64,000 nucleotides of DNA from assembly GCA_001816475.1 (NCBI GenBank), contig MHCC01000001.1:12622-76621 (forward strand), in the 5' to 3' direction. The translations under genes and the position numbers were made by a program. This document shows, piece after piece, positions 5,317-46,799 of the stretch. Numbering within the stretch: position 1 is the first letter of the stretch; every line of letters starts with the position of its first letter. The notes under the pieces are model-generated. The model was given only the letters and a program-made list of their open reading frames with translations, did no database searches and was not told the origin of the DNA. Source of the DNA: Candidatus Blackburnbacteria bacterium RIFCSPLOWO2_01_FULL_40_20 (lineage in GTDB: Bacteria > Patescibacteriota > Microgenomatia > UBA8517 > UBA10165).

Positions 5317-5692
5317 AGGTAACTCCCTTTATCACCGCTGCGTCAATAATTCCAGTATATTTCACCGAAATAAAATAATCAACAGCAGTAACTAATATGG
5401 AGTAGCTGACTTCTCTTAAGGCCTTAACCTTCATCCTTAAGAGATCTCCCTAGGTCACTATCGCTTCTGTTCCAAGCATCCAAGTTATGCCACTTCCCCA
5501 AAACACACCGCTTGGGTCGATTTGGCACCCCGATATCGATCGGAGCTTGGCTGCTTTTTGCCTCAGGCCCTCCAGCTGGTATCTCACGATAACCCAGCCT
5601 GCCAATTCTTTTTGGCTACTCCTCCTCATGTTTAGAGGAGGGAGTGGATTTAAACCACTTAGGAACAATAGCTGCTAGGCGCGCTTTAATTT
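4825..5692 (-). other. 16S intron 1, inserted between TTGTACACA and CCGCCCGTCA (E. coli ~1398/1399)
   Basis: Universally conserved 16S sequence resumes exactly on either side of the insertion. Intron type not established: the boundaries do not show the canonical U / omega-G pattern in my reading. Confidence 0.55.
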
Positions 5693-6161
5693 TGTGTACA
5701 AAGAGCGAGAACGTATTCACCGCGGTATAGCTGACCCGCGATTACTACCAATTCCGCGTTCATGCAGGCGAATTTCAGCCTGCAATCCCCACTGAGACGC
5801 CTTTTGATGAGATTAGCTCCGCCTCGCGGCTTGGCAACTCATTGTAGGCGCCATTGTAGCATGTTTGTAGCCCCAGACATAAGGGCCATGCTGACTTGAC
5901 GTCGTCCCCTCCTTCCTGTCCGATAAAATCGGACCTGTCCCGTATGAATATTTAACATACAGCAGGGGTTGCGCTCGTTACCTCACTTAAGAGAACACCC
6001 CACGGCACGAGCTGACGACAGCCATGCAACACCTGTCCTAACGCTCCGGTTTGCACCGGAGGGCTCTGACTTTCATCGGAGTTTCATTAGGATGTCAAGC
6101 CTGGGTAAGGTTCTTCGGTTCGTGTCGAATTAAACAACATGCTCCACTGGTTGTGCGCTCT

Positions 6162-6210
<49 letters not shown>

Positions 6211-6254
6211 CTCGCTTAACGCGTTAGCTTGCGGAACAGATCTCGCAAAAAATA

Positions 6255-6440
6255 CAACGTATTTTTTGCTCAAAACCCAAAATACGAAATCCTAAATTCG
6301 AAACAATATCTAAATTCTAAATTCAAATAATTAAACGTTTTGAATTTTAGGATTTTTAGATTTTGAATTTGTTTCGTGCTTCGATATTCGTGCTTTGAAT
6401 TTCTCGCAAAGAATGTATTCTTTGCGAGACCTATCCCAAG
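6255..6440 (-). repeat. AT-rich ~185-nt expansion segment inside the 16S (E. coli ~840 region)
   Basis: Inserted between GTAAACTATG... and GCTAACGCGTTAAGC. Self-complementary halves (AAATCCTAAAATTCAAAACG ... CGAATTTAGGATTT) predict a long hairpin. Built from AAATTCAAAAT-like units similar to the intergenic GAAAATT iterons. Confidence 0.5.
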
Positions 6441-7560
6441 CGAGCATAGTTTACGGCTAGGACTACAGGGGTCTCTAATCCCTTTCGCTACCCTAGCTTT
6501 CGTCTCTCAGCGTCAGAATCTTTCTAGATGTTCGCCTTCGCCGTCGGTGTTCCTCGTAATATCAACGGATTTAACCCCTACACTACGAGTTCCAACATCC
6601 CCGAAAGATCTCAAAGTTCACCCGTATTCTCCGATATCCCAGAGTTAAGCTCTGGACTTTAACAGAAAACGTGGCGGACCGCCTACAGACTCTTTACGCC
6701 CAATAAATCCGGACAACGCTTGCACCCTCCGTATTACCGAGGCTTCTGGCACGGAGTTAGCAGGTGCTTATTCTACAACCTGTATGATTGTCAAAAGGAG
6801 TTTAAGACCCGAAGGCCTTCTTCCTCCACGCGGCGTCGCGGGATCAGACTTGCGTCCATTGTCCACGATTCCCAGTTGCTGCCACCCGTAGGTGTATGAG
6901 CCGTGTCTCAGTCTCATTCTGGGGGGCCGTGCTCTAACACCCCCTACCCGTTATAGCCTTGGTAGGCCGTTACCCCACCAACTAGCTGATAGGCCGCCGG
7001 CTCTTTCTTCGGTGGACCGTTAAGTCCTTTGCTCTTGCGAGATTATGCGGTATTACCCCCGCTTTCGCGGGGCTATCCCCCACCAAAGAGTAGATTCCGA
7101 CGTGTTACTCAGCCGTCTGCCGCTATCCCGACTTGCGTCGGAATCGCTCGACTTGCATGCTTAAAGCGCGCCGCTAGCGTTCGTCCTGGGCCAGGATCAA
7201 ACCCTCAAAAAAAATTGACATGATCAACTCCGATTTACATCGGAGCAACCATGGGTTCCCAGTTACATTTTGAATGTCAAAGAGCAAATTGCAACGCAAT
7301 TTACGATGCACCCACCGATAAATCTTGGCACGAGGCGTGTACGAATAGTACCCGCAAGCCGAGTGCGAAGATAAGGCGGGAAGGTACGCATGGTCTCTTT
7401 AAACCAAAAATCCACCACATGGCGGATTAAACAAGCTTTTTAGGCTTACTGGCTTACTCTTTTCCCATGTGTTTGAAAAGTATACTCGATTCCCTATCAA
7501 TAGTCAACCATCCGTTTAGTGTAAACACATATTTGCAAATACATATATAATAGTGTTGAA

Positions 7561-18147: not shown

Positions 18148-18702
18148 ATGGGCATGATCAAACTTGGCTCAAAAGAACTTCGAAAAAACAAACCTGAAGA
18201 GCATCAATTAAAAGAAATTAAAAGGAATCCAATTTATATTGTATTGGATCGGGTTTGGGATACTTATAACATTGGCTCTTTATTTCGTTTGGCTGACGCG
18301 GTTGCAGTTGAAAAAGTATATCTTTGCGGCGATATGGAATACCCTCCTTCTTCCCGAATCCACAAAGCTGCAGTGGGGACTGAAGAATGGGTTCCTTGGG
18401 AAAAAAGAGACACAACAATTGAAGTAATTGATGAATTGAAGAAGAAGGGTGTTCAAATAGTTGCAATTGAACAAGATAGTAGATCAACTCTCCTAAAAGA
18501 ACTTGTACCAAGCTTCCCAGTTGCACTAATTGTTGGACATGAATCTGACGGTGTATCAAAAGAAGTATTGGATAAAGCAGACATTATTGTTGAGTTGCCG
18601 ATGTTTGGAGTAAACAAATCGTTTAACGTTTGGGGCTCGGGCGCTGTCGTTGCCTACAAAGTCCTAGAATACACACAAAAATGTCATCCTGAACGCAAGT
18701 GA
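18148..18702 (+). CDS. SpoU/TrmH-family RNA 2'-O-methyltransferase
   Basis: NIGSLFRLADAVAVEKVYLCG, GHESDGVS and ELPMFGVNKSFNVWGSGAVVAY match the three SPOUT motifs. Confidence 0.75.
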   Translation: MGMIKLGSKELRKNKPEEHQLKEIKRNPIYIVLDRVWDTYNIGSLFRLADAVAVEKVYLCGDMEYPPSSRIHKAAVGTEEWVPWEKRDTTIEVIDELKKKGVQIVAIEQDSRSTLLKELVPSFPVALIVGHESDGVSKEVLDKADIIVELPMFGVNKSFNVWGSGAVVAYKVLEYTQKCHPERK

Positions 18703-18709
18703 AGGATCT

Positions 18710-19021
18710 ATGGGCATGAAGCACTATTACACTTATATTTTGACTAACATAACAAATAATGTTCTTTATACCGGGGTAACAGGCAACTTACTTAAAAGAG
18801 TATGGCAACACAAGAACAAGCTAATTCGTGGTTTCACTCAAAGATATAATGTCAATAAGCTTGTTTACTTTGAAAGTTTCAACAACCCGCATGAAGCAAT
18901 TGCAGCCGAAAAGAAAATAAAAGGTTGGAACAGAGAGAAGAAAATTGCTTTGATTGAATCCAAAAATCACGAATGGAGAGATATGAGTGAAGAACTAGAT
19001 CCTTCGCTTCGCTCAGGATGA
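18710..19021 (+). CDS. GIY-YIG nuclease-family small protein
   Basis: YYTYILTN...LYTGVTGNLLKRVWQH followed by E and N residues fits the GIY-YIG domain. Confidence 0.75.
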   Translation: MGMKHYYTYILTNITNNVLYTGVTGNLLKRVWQHKNKLIRGFTQRYNVNKLVYFESFNNPHEAIAAEKKIKGWNREKKIALIESKNHEWRDMSEELDPSLRSG

Positions 19022-19072
19022 CAACCTAACCAGTGCTCAGGATGACAACCTAACCAGTGCTCAGAAAAAACA
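19019..19072 (+). repeat. tandem direct repeat, 24-bp unit GCTCAGGATGACAACCTAACCAGT x2.25
   Basis: Two perfect copies plus a partial third, starting at the GIY-YIG gene's stop codon. The GTCATCCTGAG core recurs at 28354 and (as GTCCTGAGC) at 44948 and 45448. Confidence 0.7.
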
Positions 19073-25094: not shown

Positions 25095-27344
25095 TTACTT
25101 CCCTAATCCAACCCTTTTCAACAACAATGAATTTGAAACAACTGAAACTGAAGACATTGCCATGGCAGCTGAGGCAAAGATGGGGCTAAGCAGTATTTTT
25201 GCGAACGGATATAAGGCACCCATCGCCACAGGAATCAAAATAACGTTATATCCAAACGCCCAAATCAAGTTCATCCGAATTGTTCTCATTGTTTTCCGTG
25301 ACAGTTCAATCGCCCGCGCAACAGAGCGCAAATCTTTGTTAACCAAGGTTATACTTGCTGCCTCAATTGCCACATCCGTTCCCGTTCCCATTGCAATCCC
25401 GATGTCAGCTGCCGCCAGCGCCGGTGCGTCGTTTATCCCGTCCCCCACCATTGCAACAACTTTCCTCTCGGCTTGAATTTTCCTAACTTCTGCTTCTTTC
25501 CCGTCCGGCAAAACTTCCGCTAAAACACGTTTAATCCCAACTTGCCCGGCAATAGCCTCAGCCGTCCTTTCGTTGTCTCCGGTTATCATCACAACTTCAA
25601 TTCCCATTTTTTGCAAAGCTGCAACACCTTCTTTCGCGCTATCCTTAATTTGATCTGCAACCGCAATTAATCCTGTCAATTCCCCGCCAACTCCAAGCAT
25701 CATAACTGTCTTTCCTTCCCGCTCAATTTTTACCAATCCCATTTCCTCTTCCTTCTCTATCTTTATCTTCTCTCTTTGCATTAGTTTTATATTTCCCAAT
25801 ACAACCCGTACGCCTCCAATCTCTCCTACGACCCCGAACCCCGCTATCGCCTTAAACCCTTCGACTCCGCTCAGAACAAGCCCTTCTTCCTCTGCCTTTT
25901 TGACAATAGCCTCGGCCAGCGAGTGCTCCGAACCCTTCTCCAAAGACGCTGCCATTTTCAAAACATACCCCTTATCTCCCTTAGCCTTAATTCCCACCAC
26001 ATCTGTTACCTCTGGTTTTCCTCGCGTTAAAGTTCCTGTCTTGTCAAAAATAACAGTATTGATTTTGAGTGCAGTCTCCAGACTCTCTGCGTCTTTTATC
26101 AAAATCCCGTTTTCTGCTCCCTTACCTGTTCCAACCATAATTGCAGTTGGCGTTGCCAGCCCCATTGCGCAAGGGCAAGCGATAATCAACACGGCAATCG
26201 CGTTTAGCATTGCAAAAAGAAAAGTAGGTGAAGGACCGAAGTTGTACCAAACAACAAAAGTTAAGATAGAAAGCATAATAACAACAGGAACGAAATATGA
26301 AGAAACTGAATCAACCAACTTTTGTATCGGTGCTTTGCTTGCTTGAGCATCAGCAACAAGCTTAATAATTTGAGCAAGCATAGTTTCCTGTCCAACTTTT
26401 GAGGCCTTAAAGGTAAATGTACCGGTCTTGTTAAGCGTCGCCCCAATCACAACATCGCCTTTTGTCTTGTCAATTGGCAGGCTTTCACCCGTTACCATAG
26501 ACTCATCTATCGAGGATTCTCCATCTTCAATAATCCCGTCCGTTGGTATCTTCTCTCCTGGCCGCACGCGAACAATGTCGCCCGCCACTACTTGCCCGAT
26601 AGGCACATCCATTTCTTTACCACTCTTTAAAACTCTGGCAGTTTTGGCTTGTAATCCAATAAGTTTTTTGATGGCCTCCGAAGTCCCTGCCTTTGCACGA
26701 GCTTCAAAATACCTGCCCAACAAAATTAAACCAATCACAACGGTTGAAACGTCAAAATATGGCATAACTTCAAAACCTGCTCTTTCTAAAAATTGTGGGA
26801 AAAGTGTTGCAACAACAGAAAATGAATAAGCAGCAGTCGTGCCAATGGCAATGAGTGTATCCATATTGGCAGTCCTGTGGCGAAGTGCGGGGATAGTGCC
26901 CTTGTAAAACTGTAACCCTGGCCAAAATTGAACAATGGTGGCCATTACGAGTTGAAAATAAAAGTCCTTCAAAAACAAAGGCGCTGTGTCCACCAAAACC
27001 GGAAAGCTTCCCCAAACAATCAATCCAGCAAATACTAAACTGACAATCACATCGCGAAGAAGCCTGCGAAGCTCTCTGGACTTTTCCTCTTTATCTTTAT
27101 CTTTATCTGCCTCCATCTCTGTCTCTTGCTTTATCCCATACCCAATATTCGATACCGCTGAAAAAATTTGCTCATCCGTTGTCTTTTGGGGGTCAAACGC
27201 TACTGTTGCCCGTTCTGTAACTAAGCTAACCTGGGCCGAGAATACTCCATCCACCTTCTCCAAAGCCTTTTCAATAAGCCTCACACAAGATGCACAATGC
27301 ATTCCTTTGACGGAATAAGTTCGATTAATTAGTTTTTTCTCCAT
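25095..27344 (-). CDS. copA: copper-translocating P1B-type ATPase
   Basis: N-terminal HMA domain GMHCASC, CPC transmembrane motif, DKTGTLT phosphorylation site, GDGINDAP hinge. Contains a CTTTAT hexamer repeat encoding DKDKDKEEK. Confidence 0.9.
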
Positions 27345-42367: not shown

Positions 42368-42400
42368 CGTTCTCTCTAGAAATGCTTGCACTGAGTCCTA

Positions 42401-42898: not shown

Positions 42899-44416
42899 TT
42901 ACATTATCGTTCTCTTCTCCACTCTCACTCCACCAACCTCAGCTTCCTCTACTAGCGTTGTGTCTTTACTCGCCTTCTCATACCACTTATCAAACTTTTC
43001 GGGGTCTCCACCGGGTTCAATAACTAAAAATATAATCTTCCCGCATCCAATTTGCGGCTTTGCGTAAAACGCCGATGATGGAACATAAGTATCCTTTAAA
43101 AATCCCGGCTCGATTGTATATTCACAAGGAACAAAACCATATTTATTCTTTCCTTGCCACCAAAAAAGATATTGCCAATTGTAGTCATAAACATGTGGTG
43201 TATAAACATAAACGTCAAACCCGTTCCCCTCATTTTTTGAGTAGACATAGTCAACGACCGACATTTCGTTTTTTAATACGCTTACATCGTTTGAGGGTTG
43301 AAGATATTGCAGGTATCGCGGGACAAAAACTAAAAGTTGGGAAATGATCACGCCACCCCATACGATAGCTGCCGCCTTCTTCGAAATTTTGGCCAACATT
43401 AACAAAAAGGAGACAAACAAGAGTGGATAAAGATAAACTGTGTGCCAATCACGCCAGGCGCTATTTAATGAAAATAGTAAATAGGAAATAATAAATAACA
43501 CAATAACAAGCGATACAAACTTCCCTGCAAATTTGTCTTTAAATCCTCCGTTTTTCGCAAACAGATAAAAAATAAACACAAAAACAAGGATGCTTATTAA
43601 CAAGCTTTGTGGAACTAAACTTATTGAAAAGATCTCCCCAAAGCGTGCACCCATCTCGCCAAAGGTAGTACTTGAGAAAAATCCCCTGCCCCCAGTTTGG
43701 GCAAAAATAAATTTGCTTTGAACAAACTCCACAAACAATCTCAAGGTAAGCGGCAAAAGCAAAATTGTGGGCAACACTACATCCAGTCCAAGCAAGAACT
43801 TAAGCGCTATTTTCTTTTTGATAACTTGATGCAAGCCAACTAAAAAATGAAAAACAAAGAGTGCGACGCTTCCGGCAATTTCTGTGTTAAACCCTAAGGC
43901 AATTGGAATTAAAGCGTAAACAAAGCTTCTCTTTTTGCCTTGCAAAAAATTAACCAAGAGAAAAACAAACCAAAAAGAAAGAAAAACTAACGGAAAAGGA
44001 TTAAATGCCCAACGGGATGTATCGTAAAAAAACCAATAAAATTGCAAGCTTGTACCAATAAACAAAGCAACATATGGCGACACCCTACTTTTCAATTGCC
44101 ACATTATAAAAGCTGTTGTGGCAACACCAAGAAGGATGGTGACAAACAACGCGCCATACGGATGTCCGTTAAAAAGTTTGTATCCGACGCCGATAAAGTA
44201 ATACCACCCAGGGCCTGCATAAAGCCCGGCAATCCCCGTCTCTGGACCTTTGACAGGTAGTTGTCCCCTCTCGGTTAATTCGCGGACGTGGACCGCGTCA
44301 TTCCCTTGATCCATCGTAAAGAAAAAATTATTGTTTTGAGGAGGGATAACCCGAATCAAAAATGCAAAAACTAAAATTGAAAAGAATAAAACCCAATACG
44401 GCTTGCTCTTCATCAA
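42899..44416 (-). CDS. GT-C superfamily glycosyltransferase (ArnT/PMT-like, 12+ TM)
   Basis: Many TM helices. N-terminal loop with conserved acidic residues (FTMDQGND). Overall architecture of dolichyl-phosphate-mannose/4-amino-arabinose transferases. Confidence 0.6.
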   Translation of the reverse strand: MMKSKPYWVLFFSILVFAFLIRVIPPQNNNFFFTMDQGNDAVHVRELTERGQLPVKGPETGIAGLYAGPGWYYFIGVGYKLFNGHPYGALFVTILLGVATTAFIMWQLKSRVSPYVALFIGTSLQFYWFFYDTSRWAFNPFPLVFLSFWFVFLLVNFLQGKKRSFVYALIPIALGFNTEIAGSVALFVFHFLVGLHQVIKKKIALKFLLGLDVVLPTILLLPLTLRLFVEFVQSKFIFAQTGGRGFFSSTTFGEMGARFGEIFSISLVPQSLLISILVFVFIFYLFAKNGGFKDKFAGKFVSLVIVLFIISYLLFSLNSAWRDWHTVYLYPLLFVSFLLMLAKISKKAAAIVWGGVIISQLLVFVPRYLQYLQPSNDVSVLKNEMSVVDYVYSKNEGNGFDVYVYTPHVYDYNWQYLFWWQGKNKYGFVPCEYTIEPGFLKDTYVPSSAFYAKPQIGCGKIIFLVIEPGGDPEKFDKWYEKASKDTTLVEEAEVGGVRVEKRTIM

Positions 44417-44495
44417 AACAAGATTACCACATCAGTCTAAGCGAATATAGATTTTTGACCTCCCAAATGATAAAATTGATCCTGTTCTTTAATAT

Positions 44496-44846
44496 TCCCC
44501 GGTAGCTCAGTGGTAGAGCGGAGAGCTGTGTTAGCAGCCTTCGAAGGAAACTTCGGAGTGAAAAGTGGGTGAATTCAGGGAACGGTCCGACTTTGTTGGA
44601 TTAATCCTGAGCCAATCCTCCATTAATAGTTAGGCATGTTTGCCGAATCTTTTAATGAAGGCAGGTGCAGAGACTAGGTGATTACACCAATTAGCGCCCA
44701 CCACCCCACCCTACGCCCAGTATTAAAAATACAGGGCTTCGGAGCGGCAAGTAAAAACTTGTCCTTCCGCAGCTTAGGCGGAGAAGGGTGATGAGATAGT
44801 CCAAAAAGTAACTCTAAGGTCGTAGGTCCGAATCCTACCCGGGGAG
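44496..44846 (+). tRNA. tRNA-Asn(GTT) interrupted by a group I intron (5' exon 44496-44529, 3' exon 44809-44846)
   Basis: Exons: TCCCCGGTAGCTCAGTGGTAGAGCGGAGAGCTGT | TAACTCTAAGGTCGTAGGTCCGAATCCTACCCGGGGAG. Acceptor TCCCCGG/CCGGGGA, anticodon stem GAGAG/CTCTA, loop CTGTTAA, discriminator G. The intervening 279 nt starts after U, ends in G, and carries GGATTAATCCTGAGCCAATCC, matching the conserved element of trnL(UAA)-type group I introns. Confidence 0.65.
44530..44808 (+). other. group I intron in the tRNA anticodon loop (between positions 35 and 36)
   Basis: See tRNA entry. Also contains AATTCAGGGAA, similar to the chloroplast/cyanobacterial trnL intron AATTCAGAGAAAC. Confidence 0.6.
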
Positions 44847-44851
44847 CACGA

Positions 44852-44886
44852 AAAATTAGGCCTCATTTTTGAGGCTTTATTTTTTA
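44852..44886 (+). terminator. rho-independent terminator after the tRNA (AGGCCTCA-TTTTT-GAGGCTTT + T-run)
   Basis: GC hairpin followed by TTTATTTTTT. Confidence 0.5.
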
Positions 44887-44939
44887 TTCTTGATAGGATG
44901 AGGAGTTTACTCTGAGCGAGCGAACCCATTAAATTGCAC

Positions 44940-45005
44940 TCGGGTTTGTCCTGAGCATGTCGAAGAACGAAGCGAGTCGAACGAGAATCCTACCCGGGGA
45001 GCCGA
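44940..45005 (+). repeat. ~65-nt repeat unit ending in a copy of the tRNA-Asn 3' end (GAATCCTACCCGGGGAGC), copy 1
   Basis: GTCCTGAGCATGTCGAAGAACGAAGCGAGTCGAACGAGAATCCTACCCGGGGAGCC. The 17-nt tail is identical to tRNA positions 57-73. Confidence 0.6.
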
Positions 45006-45016
45006 CAAATCTAATA

Positions 45017-45346
45017 CTACTTAGGAGCCTTGCCGTATTTAAGAACAAAAATAATTAATATAATGGAAAAAATCCAACTAACTATTTCAACTGGTATAGA
45101 GTCAAATCCGTACGTTTTAGATAAGTAAACCAGTAATAAAAATACCGCAACAGTAAAGACTAAAATAACTACACCTAGTTTCTTATCAAAAGTAGGAAAA
45201 AAGAAAGGAACTGATCTCTCAAGCTTAGAAAATAGCTTATTCCCCAAAAGTAAATACTTTATTAGAAGAATGGTGATAAAGATAATTCCAAGAATTAACA
45301 GAAACAACTGGATAAACATAATTTGATTATAGCAAACTGTCCACAT
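45017..45346 (-). CDS. small membrane protein
   Basis: Three hydrophobic segments; lies between the two tRNA-3'-end repeat copies. Confidence 0.4.
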   Translation of the reverse strand: MWTVCYNQIMFIQLFLLILGIIFITILLIKYLLLGNKLFSKLERSVPFFFPTFDKKLGVVILVFTVAVFLLLVYLSKTYGFDSIPVEIVSWIFSIILIIFVLKYGKAPK

Positions 45347-45454
45347 CCCTTGTGCAATAGGATTGAATTATAGAAATTCCGCTTTTCTAAGACTTAATTA
45401 CTGTTCTTTGACGAGATGGGTTTACCTCTTCAAGCCTGATCCGATTCGGTCTGA

Positions 45455-45525
45455 GCCTCACAGTCGAAGACCTCAAAACCAAAGGCATGAGCGAAGCCGA
45501 AGGAAATCCTACCCGGGGAGCAAAT
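45455..45525 (+). repeat. ~65-nt repeat unit ending in the tRNA-Asn 3' end, copy 2
   Basis: GGTCTGAGCCTCACAGTCGAAGACC...GAGCGAAGCCGAAGGAAATCCTACCCGGGGAGCA. Shares the TCTGAGC...GTCGAAGA...GAGCGAAGC...AATCCTACCCGGGGAGC skeleton with copy 1. Confidence 0.6.
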
Positions 45526-45541
45526 TTAGTATAATCAACAT

Positions 45542-45847
45542 ATGTCTAAGAATCCTATTATCAATGCCCTTGGCGCGTCAGCTTACATAATCCTCATCGT
45601 CTCTGTTATGACCTTCGTGACACAACCTTTAAGGAACAAACCTGATACCTTTTTCGCCCCAATCACAGCATTATTTGTGCTCACTCTCTCTGTTACAGTA
45701 ATGGCATTCCTGTTTTTTTACCAACCCCTTCAGTTTTTTGTTGAAGGAAAGAAAAAAGAAGCGGTTAATTTGTTTGTTAAAACTGTGGGCACATTCGCAG
45801 TTATTACAGTTGTGGTTTTAATTCTGCTTTTTTCTGGTCTAATTTAG
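45542..45847 (+). CDS. small membrane protein (three TM)
   Basis: 101 aa, strongly hydrophobic. Confidence 0.45.
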   Translation: MSKNPIINALGASAYIILIVSVMTFVTQPLRNKPDTFFAPITALFVLTLSVTVMAFLFFYQPLQFFVEGKKKEAVNLFVKTVGTFAVITVVVLILLFSGLI

Positions 45848-45929
45848 TGTTAAAACAGTTTCTAAGACTCAACTCTCCAACTCCAAATTTTTAAAACACA
45901 ATCCCCTTCGTAATAAATTCCAGTATAAT

Positions 45930-46799
45930 TTGTACATGTTCTCAAAAATGCATAAGGGCACTATTGTTTTATCTCATTTTCAAGTAGCCTCTTTGTTGCA
46001 GTCCCAAAAAGAAGCAACTGTTTCAATATCTTTGGATTTAGGTTTAACTACAAGCAGGGTTCAGGTGGAGAATAGTGGAATTATCTTGCCTGATGGCCAA
46101 AGAATTAGTTGGAAGGATTTAGGAAAAATTTCCAAACATAAAAATAGATGTTACCTGGTTGAAAATAATACGGTTAGCCCGATTGTTGTCTATTCCGAGA
46201 AGACTGGCTGGGTTCGTACTCTTTACCCAACAAGTAGCGCTCCAACAACTTTAATTTCAGGAATACTAATGCACAGGATTAAAGATGTGGATCCAACAGA
46301 AGATACAGTAAGAAAAATTGGGACTCTTGGTTCTTTAAAAGGAGCTGTAGTTTTGGATACTGCCACAGGCTTGGGCTACACTGCAATTGAGGCTTCAAAA
46401 CAAGCAAACAAGGTTGTAACAGTAGAACTTGATCCTACAGCACTGGAGATTGCTCAACTTAATCCTTGGTCACAAAAACTTTTTAACAATCCTAAAATTA
46501 TTCAAATTGTTGGAGATATAGGAAAAGAAGTTAAAAAGTTTAAAAATGAGGATTTTACCCATATTGTCCATGACCCACCCACTTCAAGAATCACAGGAGA
46601 GCTTTATTCGGGAAATCTTTACAAAGAATTTTACAGAATATTAAAAAGTGGTGGAAAAATGTTCCATTATATAGGTGATCCCAACAGTGAACATGGTGCC
46701 CAAGTTACACCTGGTGTGATAAGAAGACTTCAAGAAGCAGGATTCCGCGATATTGAGAAAAGACCTGAAGCGTTTGGAGTAGTGGCTGTCAAATTTTGA
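45930..46799 (+). CDS. class I SAM-dependent methyltransferase (DPPx-motif, probable RNA/DNA base methyltransferase)
   Basis: SAM-binding motif I VLDTATGLGYTAIEAS. Motif IV-like HIVHDPPTS. N-terminal ~100-aa extra domain. Confidence 0.6.
   Translation: MYMFSKMHKGTIVLSHFQVASLLQSQKEATVSISLDLGLTTSRVQVENSGIILPDGQRISWKDLGKISKHKNRCYLVENNTVSPIVVYSEKTGWVRTLYPTSSAPTTLISGILMHRIKDVDPTEDTVRKIGTLGSLKGAVVLDTATGLGYTAIEASKQANKVVTVELDPTALEIAQLNPWSQKLFNNPKIIQIVGDIGKEVKKFKNEDFTHIVHDPPTSRITGELYSGNLYKEFYRILKSGGKMFHYIGDPNSEHGAQVTPGVIRRLQEAGFRDIEKRPEAFGVVAVKF

Follow-up and report, generated by a model that had tools for sequence, protein, structure and literature searches.

The tRNA-Asn gene on contig MHCC01000001.1 of Candidatus Blackburnbacteria bacterium RIFCSPLOWO2_01_FULL_40_20 (GenBank assembly GCA_001816475.1), a member of the Patescibacteria, is followed by two further copies of its own 3' end. 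We analysed 64,000 nucleotides of this contig (positions 12,622 to 76,621 of the forward strand), here called the window, in whose coordinates all positions are given. In our view the two extra tRNA ends are probably the scars of two successive insertions of tRNA-targeting cassettes encoding a GIY-YIG nuclease. A wider proposal, which we make tentatively, is that such cassettes constitute an undescribed family in Patescibacteria. Its members would be about 0.4 kb long, with a single gene for a GIY-YIG protein of about 95 aa between inverted boxes of about 20 nt; they would enter tRNA genes (Asn, Arg and probably Leu) at one fixed structural position, always duplicating positions 58-74, pass from one genome to another even where the tRNA alleles differ, and degenerate into right-end relics devoid of an open reading frame (ORF), as in the window. 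Judged by sequence, the window holds relics of such cassettes rather than intact members, and only end boxes appear to remain. A literature search, which covered subscription journals thinly, brought up no account of GIY-YIG cassettes that sit at tRNA 3' ends with such a duplication; since this coverage is incomplete, the word undescribed is provisional.

Extra tRNA 3' ends and GIY-YIG cassettes

The 17-mer AATCCTACCCGGGGAGC, corresponding to tRNA-Asn positions 58-74, occurs exactly three times on the plus strand, at 44831-44847 inside exon 2 of the tRNA gene (copy 1), at 44986-45002 (copy 2) and at 45505-45521 (copy 3), and has no other copy in the window. The chance expectation is 0.01 matches, and none of 100 shuffled sequences contained three or more. 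Extended by one base to the left, the tRNA terminus is the 18-mer GAATCCTACCCGGGGAGC (44830-44847), which copy 2 matches at 18/18 (44985-45002, tRNA positions 57-74) and copy 3 at 17/18, where it reads AAATCC... (45504-45521). The original prediction, made from the sequence alone, had reported extra tRNA-Asn 3' ends downstream of the gene at 44987-45004 and 45507-45524; both are real, with coordinates that were 2-3 nt too high. The repeated segment spans the 3' part of the T-loop, the 3' sides of the T-stem and the acceptor, the discriminator G and one further C. Identity among the copies breaks off sharply at 57/58, and left of position 58 the extra copies are unlike the tRNA. No additional 5' fragments of tRNA-Asn were found in the window, the D-arm 19-mer occurring there once. 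The three 17-mers constitute direct repeats of a tRNA 3' segment that bound inserted DNA, the pattern by which scars of attachment (att) sites are recognised.

Extra tRNA ends of the same kind were found elsewhere when metagenome contigs were scanned for occurrences of the 17-mer that lack the invariant T-loop C56 directly before them. The scan gave 46 loci (L numbers in what follows), a sample selected through the 17-mer and biased to right ends. About 23 of the 46 follow closely on a tRNA-Asn gene of the same orientation, the extra copy being found 50-1500 nt beyond it, and in 11 of the 46 tblastn detected a GIY-YIG gene at the site. What separates the two 17-mers in L039, L057, L068, L075 and L076 is one ORF of about 95 aa, and the same ORF lies just upstream of the 17-mer in L041. 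Five cassette ORFs were scanned against Pfam and all five proved to be GIY-YIG proteins (PF01541, E 9e-18 to 2e-13), while an NCBIfam search of the GIY-YIG proteins matched no model. The intact cassette of related Patescibacteria, about 0.4 kb in most loci, has as its sole ORF this UPF0213-like nuclease of about 95 aa, which lacks a separate DNA-binding domain. Its left end is the box ACTTCGGCAAGCTCAG, directly after tRNA position 74; the sequence right after C74 reads ACTTCGGCAAGCTCAGTGCAAGC and is followed by the nuclease ORF. Its right end, GTTTACCCTGAG(T/C)TT(A/G)CCGAAGG(G/A), is the first box inverted and is followed by the second 17-mer, the inverted end boxes abutting the two 17-mers. 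The box motifs of the cassette family are CTTCGGCAAGCTCAG and CTGAG..CCGAAGG. A terminator follows the last copy in L039, L066 and L048, as expected if that last copy is the displaced native end.

Since the 46 loci had been chosen through the 17-mer, a second search was made with the L057 nuclease as the query. It returned 428 clusters; where an organism is named, it nearly always belongs to the Patescibacteria (Curtissbacteria, Woesebacteria), and PF01541 was present in 120 of 120 homologues among the matches listed. Six contexts of homologous nucleases were examined. In L092 the left copy is a tRNA-Asn allele, AATCCAGCCCGGGGAGC, and in L105 it is the end of an intron-containing tRNA-Asn, AATCCTACCGGGGGAGC; in both, the right copy is identical (17/17). 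In L103 the left copy belongs to tRNA-Arg(TCT), AGTCCCTCCGGGAGCGC, and the right copy, AATCCCTCCGGGCGCGC, matches it from position 58 at 15/17. The left copy in L100 is a tRNA-Asn end, from which the right copy differs (13/17), agreeing instead at 16/17 with the allele of L105. L094 and L096 have a degenerate left copy and a right copy. The duplicated 17-mer follows the host tRNA, with three tRNA-Asn alleles and one tRNA-Arg represented, and the left and right copies can stem from different tRNA alleles, as in L100. An endonuclease ORF between a functional and a displaced 3' end was found in L039, L041, L057, L068, L075, L076, L092, L100, L103 and L105.

The first of the two segments in the window, unit 1 (44848-45002, 155 nt), carries copy 2 and the second, unit 2 (45003-45521, 519 nt), carries copy 3. 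Directly 3' of the tRNA lies a hairpin with a T-run resembling an intrinsic terminator (44858-44888, plus strand), and to the left of each copy, on the same strand, is a segment that we call its arm. The arm of copy 2 (44903-44984) contains two right-end boxes, GTTTACTCTGAGCGAGCGAA (44905-44924) and GTTTGTCCTGAGCATGTCGAAGA (44944-44966). The arm of copy 3 (45420-45504) contains GTTTACCTCTTCAAGCC (45420-45436), TCTGAGCCTCACAGTCGAAGA (45450-45470) and TGAGCGAAGCCGAAGGA (45488-45504), the last abutting the 17-mer. Shared by the two arms, with indels, are CTGAGC, GTCGAAGA and AGCGA..C.GAA.GA; no arm-like sequence was found elsewhere in the window, and the arms resemble neither the tRNA body nor its intron. 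The succession of tRNA, terminator, arm and 3'-end copy is also found in L060, L058 and L066 and behind tRNA-Leu in L103, and ORF-less units with that layout occur in L060, L058, L046 and at the tRNA-Leu of L103. In this last case the tRNA is followed by a terminator, an arm with CTGAG/CGAAG boxes and a 19-nt copy of the tRNA end, which is the layout of unit 1.

A profile trained on 11 right-end boxes from outside the window, from which the 17-mer had been removed, was searched against both strands of the window. Its best match (44943-44967, E 8.6e-4) and its second (44903-44921, E 8e-3) both fall in the arm of copy 2, and an earlier, smaller box profile had the same top two matches. The third (19000-19019, minus strand, E 0.018) falls in a repeat that belongs to a GIY-YIG gene resident in the window. 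This gene (18710-19021, plus strand, 103 aa) encodes a protein that in tblastn is 41% identical to the nuclease of L057 (E 3e-14). It is flanked by an inverted repeat of about 26 nt, TGTCATCCTGAACGCAAGTGAAGGATC at 18682-18708 and GATCCTTCGCTTCGCTCAGGATGACA at 18998-19023, which belongs to the box family of the arms at tRNA-Asn. The 16-mer TGAGCGAAGCGAAGGA from this repeat, allowing at most one edit, occurs in the window only at 19000 (minus strand) and at 45488-45504, a result that none of 30 shuffles reproduced, and the arm of copy 3 agrees with the inverted repeat of the resident gene at 16 of 17 bases. Among the metagenomic loci, the best blastn matches of unit 1 without its 17-mer lie just left of the extra 17-mers in L039, L076 and L065, and the arm of copy 3 resembles those of L075, L039 and L076.

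Proposed mechanism and competing explanations

As regards the insertion chemistry, the order of events and the driver of mobility, we infer that the cassette acts as a free-standing homing-endonuclease element, moved by the activity of its own nuclease. It would enter a tRNA gene in the T-loop at 57|58 and supply or regenerate positions 58-74, leaving the tRNA intact, and the displaced native 3' end would stay downstream of the cassette. Each new invasion would push the older 3' ends rightward, which in the window would make copy 3 the oldest and native end and copy 1 the current one. The window would have kept, twice, the right-end box together with a second 3'-end copy, the nuclease gene and the left-end box having been lost. 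It can be speculated that the excess of relics with only a right end comes from abortive copying from the right-hand end. The cassettes may recognise their target by the shape, not the sequence, of the tRNA gene, and the relics are probably without present function.

Several observations weigh against this interpretation. The left-end box is present in neither unit, tblastn at E<=1 detected no nuclease ORF or remnant in 44848-45541, the interior of unit 2 has no counterpart in any of the cassettes, and a 110-nt profile of cassette 3' regions had no significant match in the window (E 0.12 and 1.3). With no nuclease between the copies, what ties the window to the cassettes is a set of boxes of about 20-25 nt and the places where they lie. 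The pairwise alignment of the two arms is weak (p about 0.003-0.15, depending on the scoring); the claim of related units of about 65 nt in the original prediction holds in that both segments carry boxes of one motif family, and fails as to direct likeness. The resident GIY-YIG protein is 41% identical to the tRNA-Asn cassette nucleases and no more, and its boxes are opposite in polarity to those of the tRNA-Asn cassettes. Finally, no pair of filled and empty sites was found in otherwise identical genomes, and since the locus is identical in every recovered assembly, the case for mobility is indirect. What might be a vestige of a left end behind copy 2, ACTTAGGAGCC at about 45020, was considered too weak to count.

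The same GIY-YIG cassettes could also have moved by a cut-and-paste or copy-in route, with staggered cuts at 57|58 and 74|75 and structural recognition of the T-arm and acceptor region, in which case the 17-mer would be a true target-site duplication. We consider this unlikely. It would account well for terminal inverted boxes that abut the 17-mers, for duplication boundaries that are the same in tRNA-Asn and tRNA-Arg, and for a duplication that equals the host allele in L092 and L105 and nearly so in L103; a nuclease of about 95 aa with no separate DNA-binding domain, whose nearest solved relative is a UPF0213 protein, also suits it. The copies in L100, however, come from different tRNA-Asn alleles (13/17 to each other, the right one 16/17 to that of L105), and this is not predicted by simple duplication. 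Moreover, no transposase is present, a target-site duplication of 17 bp would to our knowledge be unusually long, and GIY-YIG homing enzymes cut with a stagger of 2 nt. Target-site duplication is nevertheless the main alternative to the replacement model; L092 and L105 agree with both to the same degree, and the sequences do not discriminate between the two.

Somewhat more doubtful is the explanation to which the original prediction leant, namely that the copies are attL/attR-type scars of integrase islands or prophages which arrived in tandem at tRNA-Asn and lost nearly everything, the integrase included. An identity block running from the T-loop to the 3' end is the classical att layout of tRNA-targeting tyrosine integrases, which the repeat block here matches, and att-flanked derivatives lacking an integrase are known, such as the cis-mobilizable elements (CIMEs) of Streptococcus thermophilus; Williams, in Nucleic Acids Research (NAR) in 2002, is said to have treated the att-site layout in tRNA genes or such integrase-less derivatives. 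Several viral contigs end at a tRNA-Asn that carries this 17-mer, and unrelated cargo lies between the copies in L043, L065 and L066. However, the absence of a recombinase at the site, which had been noted from the sequence, extends to 10 kb around it (precomputed Pfam hits on identical public contigs), and when the ORFs of 150 aa or more that lie up to 3.5 kb from a 17-mer of the 46 loci, 129 in all, were sorted into families, no integrase appeared among those common to at least two ORFs (top 25 families listed). In IMG/VR the 17-mer had 20 matches in viral contigs, all 20 being complete tRNA-Asn genes; two unit-specific patterns were unmatched in 2.9 million viral contigs, from which the nuclease clade is essentially absent, and a viral origin of the units was rejected for these reasons. 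In addition, the intact homologous units are just about 0.4 kb long with the GIY-YIG gene alone, and the arms match cassette end boxes. What is left of the idea of integrative-element remnants is that mobile DNA targeting the tRNA gene produced the direct repeats; nothing points to an integrase, which is probably the wrong agent.

It is highly improbable that the units function today, be it as tRNA-like 3' modules, processing signals, decoys or regulatory RNAs for the small neighbour genes. Folding of both units on both strands was no better than that of shuffled sequence (z 0.0 to +1.7), the units matched no Rfam family, no complement of the acceptor or T-stem that could form a minihelix was found upstream of the copies, and the arm sequences are poorly conserved between units. 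These results stand against the facts that every assembly of the species has the same, fixed arrangement, that ORF-less units of like layout recur in other lineages, and that copy 3 lies close upstream of a TATAAT (9 nt) and of a 101-aa ORF (21 nt). A tandem duplication of the tRNA gene with decayed extra copies, for which the 53-nt tandem units ending in the 17-mer in L045, L061 and L064 would speak, or a set of chance matches, can hardly be entertained, given the shuffles, arms that are unlike the tRNA body or intron, the abrupt end of identity at 57/58, the unequal length (155 vs 519 nt) and content of the segments and the lack of extra 5' tRNA-Asn fragments in the window. Nor are the repeats judged to be a genome-wide satellite that contains the tRNA end by coincidence, as had been offered as the alternative; in the window, the 65-nt unit was not found to be abundant or unlinked to tRNA genes.

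The host tRNA gene, related arrangements and the neighbourhood

The tRNA-Asn(GUU) gene, on the plus strand, is itself interrupted. Exon 1 (44496-44529) covers positions 1-35, ends ...CTGT and has U as its last base. It is followed by a group I intron of 279 nt without an ORF (44530-44808; Rfam RF00028, 62 bits against a gathering score of 50, E 1.2e-14), which is inserted at anticodon position 35/36 and ends in G. Exon 2 (44809-44847) runs from position 36 to the discriminator G73 (44846) plus C74 (44847). When 44496-44529 is spliced to 44809-44847, ARAGORN calls a tRNA-Asn(gtt) with the junction CTGT|...G|TAA; in the unspliced locus, both ARAGORN and the Rfam tRNA model miss the tRNA-Asn because the intron splits the gene. 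Insertion at 35/36 has been published for tRNA-Asn and tRNA-Asp of Patescibacteria (PMC13011429), and from its sequence the intron of the window is of this already known kind. The tRNA-Asn genes of L043, L068, L069 and L105 apparently have the same kind of intron. The T-loop of the window gene, TCCGAAT (44826-44828), has C at position 55 instead of the near-universal U, just left of the 57|58 junction. The other complete tRNA-Asn genes inspected in the fetched loci have TTCG or TTCA there, and none has C55.

Some of the metagenomic loci depart from the simple cassette. In L045, L061 and L064 a 53-nt unit (36 nt plus the 17-mer) stands behind tRNA-Asn two to three times head to tail with identical flanks, and such units can therefore be amplified locally. 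L048, L052, L063 and L072 have larger cassettes, consisting of the GIY-YIG gene and a complete new tRNA-Asn with a different acceptor stem; an inverted repeat, AAACTTCTCAGC and GCTGAGAAGTTT, surrounds the new tRNA, the old 3' ends follow it, and in L072 three 3' ends are nested. These four loci suggest serial replacement of the whole tRNA gene. In L042 the old tRNA-Asn is cut at 57|58 by a new tRNA-Asn flanked by an inverted repeat. The window has a design like that of L042 in a nested tRNA-Ile (2454-2735), where a degenerate outer tRNA-Ile(GAT)-like gene has its anticodon loop split by an intact tRNA-Ile (2526-2598), itself flanked by a 12-nt inverted repeat, CAAATATTTGCC (2510-2521) and GGCAAATATTTG (2605-2616). 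The 3' half of the outer gene has a T-loop insertion of about 57 nt with GCGAAGC-type motifs.

The resident GIY-YIG protein is distantly related to the UPF0213 protein of PDB entry 1ZG2 (E 0.002). The upstream repeat of its gene encodes the last codons (CHPERK) of the preceding 184-aa ORF (18148-18702), and a 24-nt unit, GGATGACAACCTAACCAGTGCTCA, is present in two tandem copies at 19016-19063. Just after the stop of a 1793-aa ORF, GAAATGCTTGCACTGAGT (42379-42396) matches the reverse-complemented left-end box (nhmmer E 0.1-0.2) and may be a solitary box. A box-like match at 25858-25884 lies inside a P-type ATPase gene and was taken as chance.

Between copies 2 and 3 there is an ORF for a 109-aa hydrophobic protein (45017-45346, minus strand; 29% G+C vs 41% for the window), in agreement with the small membrane-protein gene originally reported there. 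It matches no Pfam family and, among 5.8 billion proteins, only itself; its coding status is uncertain, and it may have come with the older insertion, as cargo or filler. A 101-aa membrane ORF (45542-45847, plus strand), preceded by TATAAT at 45530-45535, is flanking host DNA outside the repeats, and beyond it on that side are genes for a methyltransferase, a YibE/F protein and a Band 7 protein. A PMT_2-type glycosyltransferase gene lies on the other side. The locus is about 6.5 kb from dnaN and dnaA (precomputed gene calls), and since these are at about 50.1-52.8 kb on the minus strand (coordinates converted from the identical contig L021), it is near the probable replication origin. A complete 16S rRNA gene is found at 5643-7212 (minus strand).

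The window is identical to contigs of several groundwater metagenomes and to the assemblies GCA_001816535.1 and GCA_003505255.1; contigs that encode the Band 7 or the 101-aa protein next to the locus differ across it in a single position, a mismatch confined to one of them. The contigs behind L024, L025, L027, L086 and L088-L091 end in or near the tRNA-Asn region (about 44406-45936), which could reflect assembly trouble or unseen variants. A comparison with related genomes, which the original prediction had suggested, was of no help: followed through the glycosyltransferase, the nearest GTDB relatives L028 and L029 (51% and 43%) have rearranged neighbourhoods with another gene order and a plain tRNA-Asn, and through the methyltransferase the nearest relatives are at most 71% identical with no tRNA nearby.

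Relation to known systems

Tyrosine integrases that use att sites in tRNA genes leave direct repeats flanking the insert, regenerate the tRNA and can accrete in tandem. The cassettes share with them the repeats from the T-loop to the 3' end, the regenerated tRNA and the tandem accretion, but no integrase is found within 10 kb of the window locus or among the families shared near comparable loci (top 25 listed), and intact units carry the nuclease alone. Repeated tRNA 3' ends are routinely read as integrase footprints and used to delimit genomic islands; as a very small cassette with nothing but a nuclease gene apparently leaves the same footprint here, rules for finding islands could assign such sites in Patescibacteria wrongly. 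Repetitive extragenic palindromic elements with their associated transposases (REP/RAYT) and miniature inverted-repeat transposable elements (MITEs) are known for short dispersed boxes, non-autonomous copies and an enzyme gene between inverted boxes. Inverted boxes of about 20 nt flanking an enzyme gene, and ORF-less box copies elsewhere in the genome, are likewise seen here. The enzyme, however, is a GIY-YIG nuclease and not the Y1 transposase of REP/RAYT, and the solo copies occur together with duplicated tRNA 3' ends, unlike the boxes of REP/RAYT and MITEs, which are dispersed between genes.

For the window alone the outcome is modest, namely two inert scars and an intron-split tRNA gene missed by standard tools. 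With the tRNA introns of Patescibacteria (PMC13011429) this gene has in common the intron type, its site and the escape from standard tRNA finders; the intron and the repeats are distinct features of one gene, and the terms GIY-YIG, duplication and direct repeat do not occur in the main text of that study. If our proposal is true, the cassettes would be a second kind of selfish DNA, beside group I introns, in the tRNA genes of very small genomes, and their product would be a candidate nuclease that recognises tRNA-gene DNA at a defined position.

A GIY-YIG nuclease gene among tRNA genes is also known from phage T4, where SegB is, according to the accessible part of the source, a free-standing homing endonuclease in the tRNA gene cluster that cuts competitor DNA and in this way favours inheritance of its own tRNA-gene region (PMC2330249). 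SegB acts between phages, and in that part of the source neither duplication of a tRNA 3' end nor inverted end boxes are reported for it, whereas the clade found here is essentially absent from the 2.9 million viral contigs. The nearest documented analogue of the cassettes, by comparison of layouts, appears to be the mobile endonuclease ORF (mORF) of fungal mitochondria, described in atp6 of Allomyces and in atp6, atp9, cox2 and nad3 of Glomus (PMC3630166). The mORFs enter a gene and bring a replacement 3' end, so that the native 3' end is left downstream (PMC3630166). The differences are that the mORF target is a mitochondrial protein gene, while here it is a bacterial tRNA gene with a duplicated piece of 17 nt, and that here there is a cassette of about 0.4 kb with inverted end boxes, reduced in the window to units without the endonuclease ORF. 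Alike are the order of the 5' part of the gene, inserted 3' end, endonuclease ORF and displaced native 3' end, the GIY-YIG enzyme present in one case (atp9), and two 3' ends that can differ in lineage, as in L100, which fits the mORF model. Should the proposed family prove real, bacteria would have in it a tRNA-directed counterpart of these mitochondrial mobile endonuclease ORFs.

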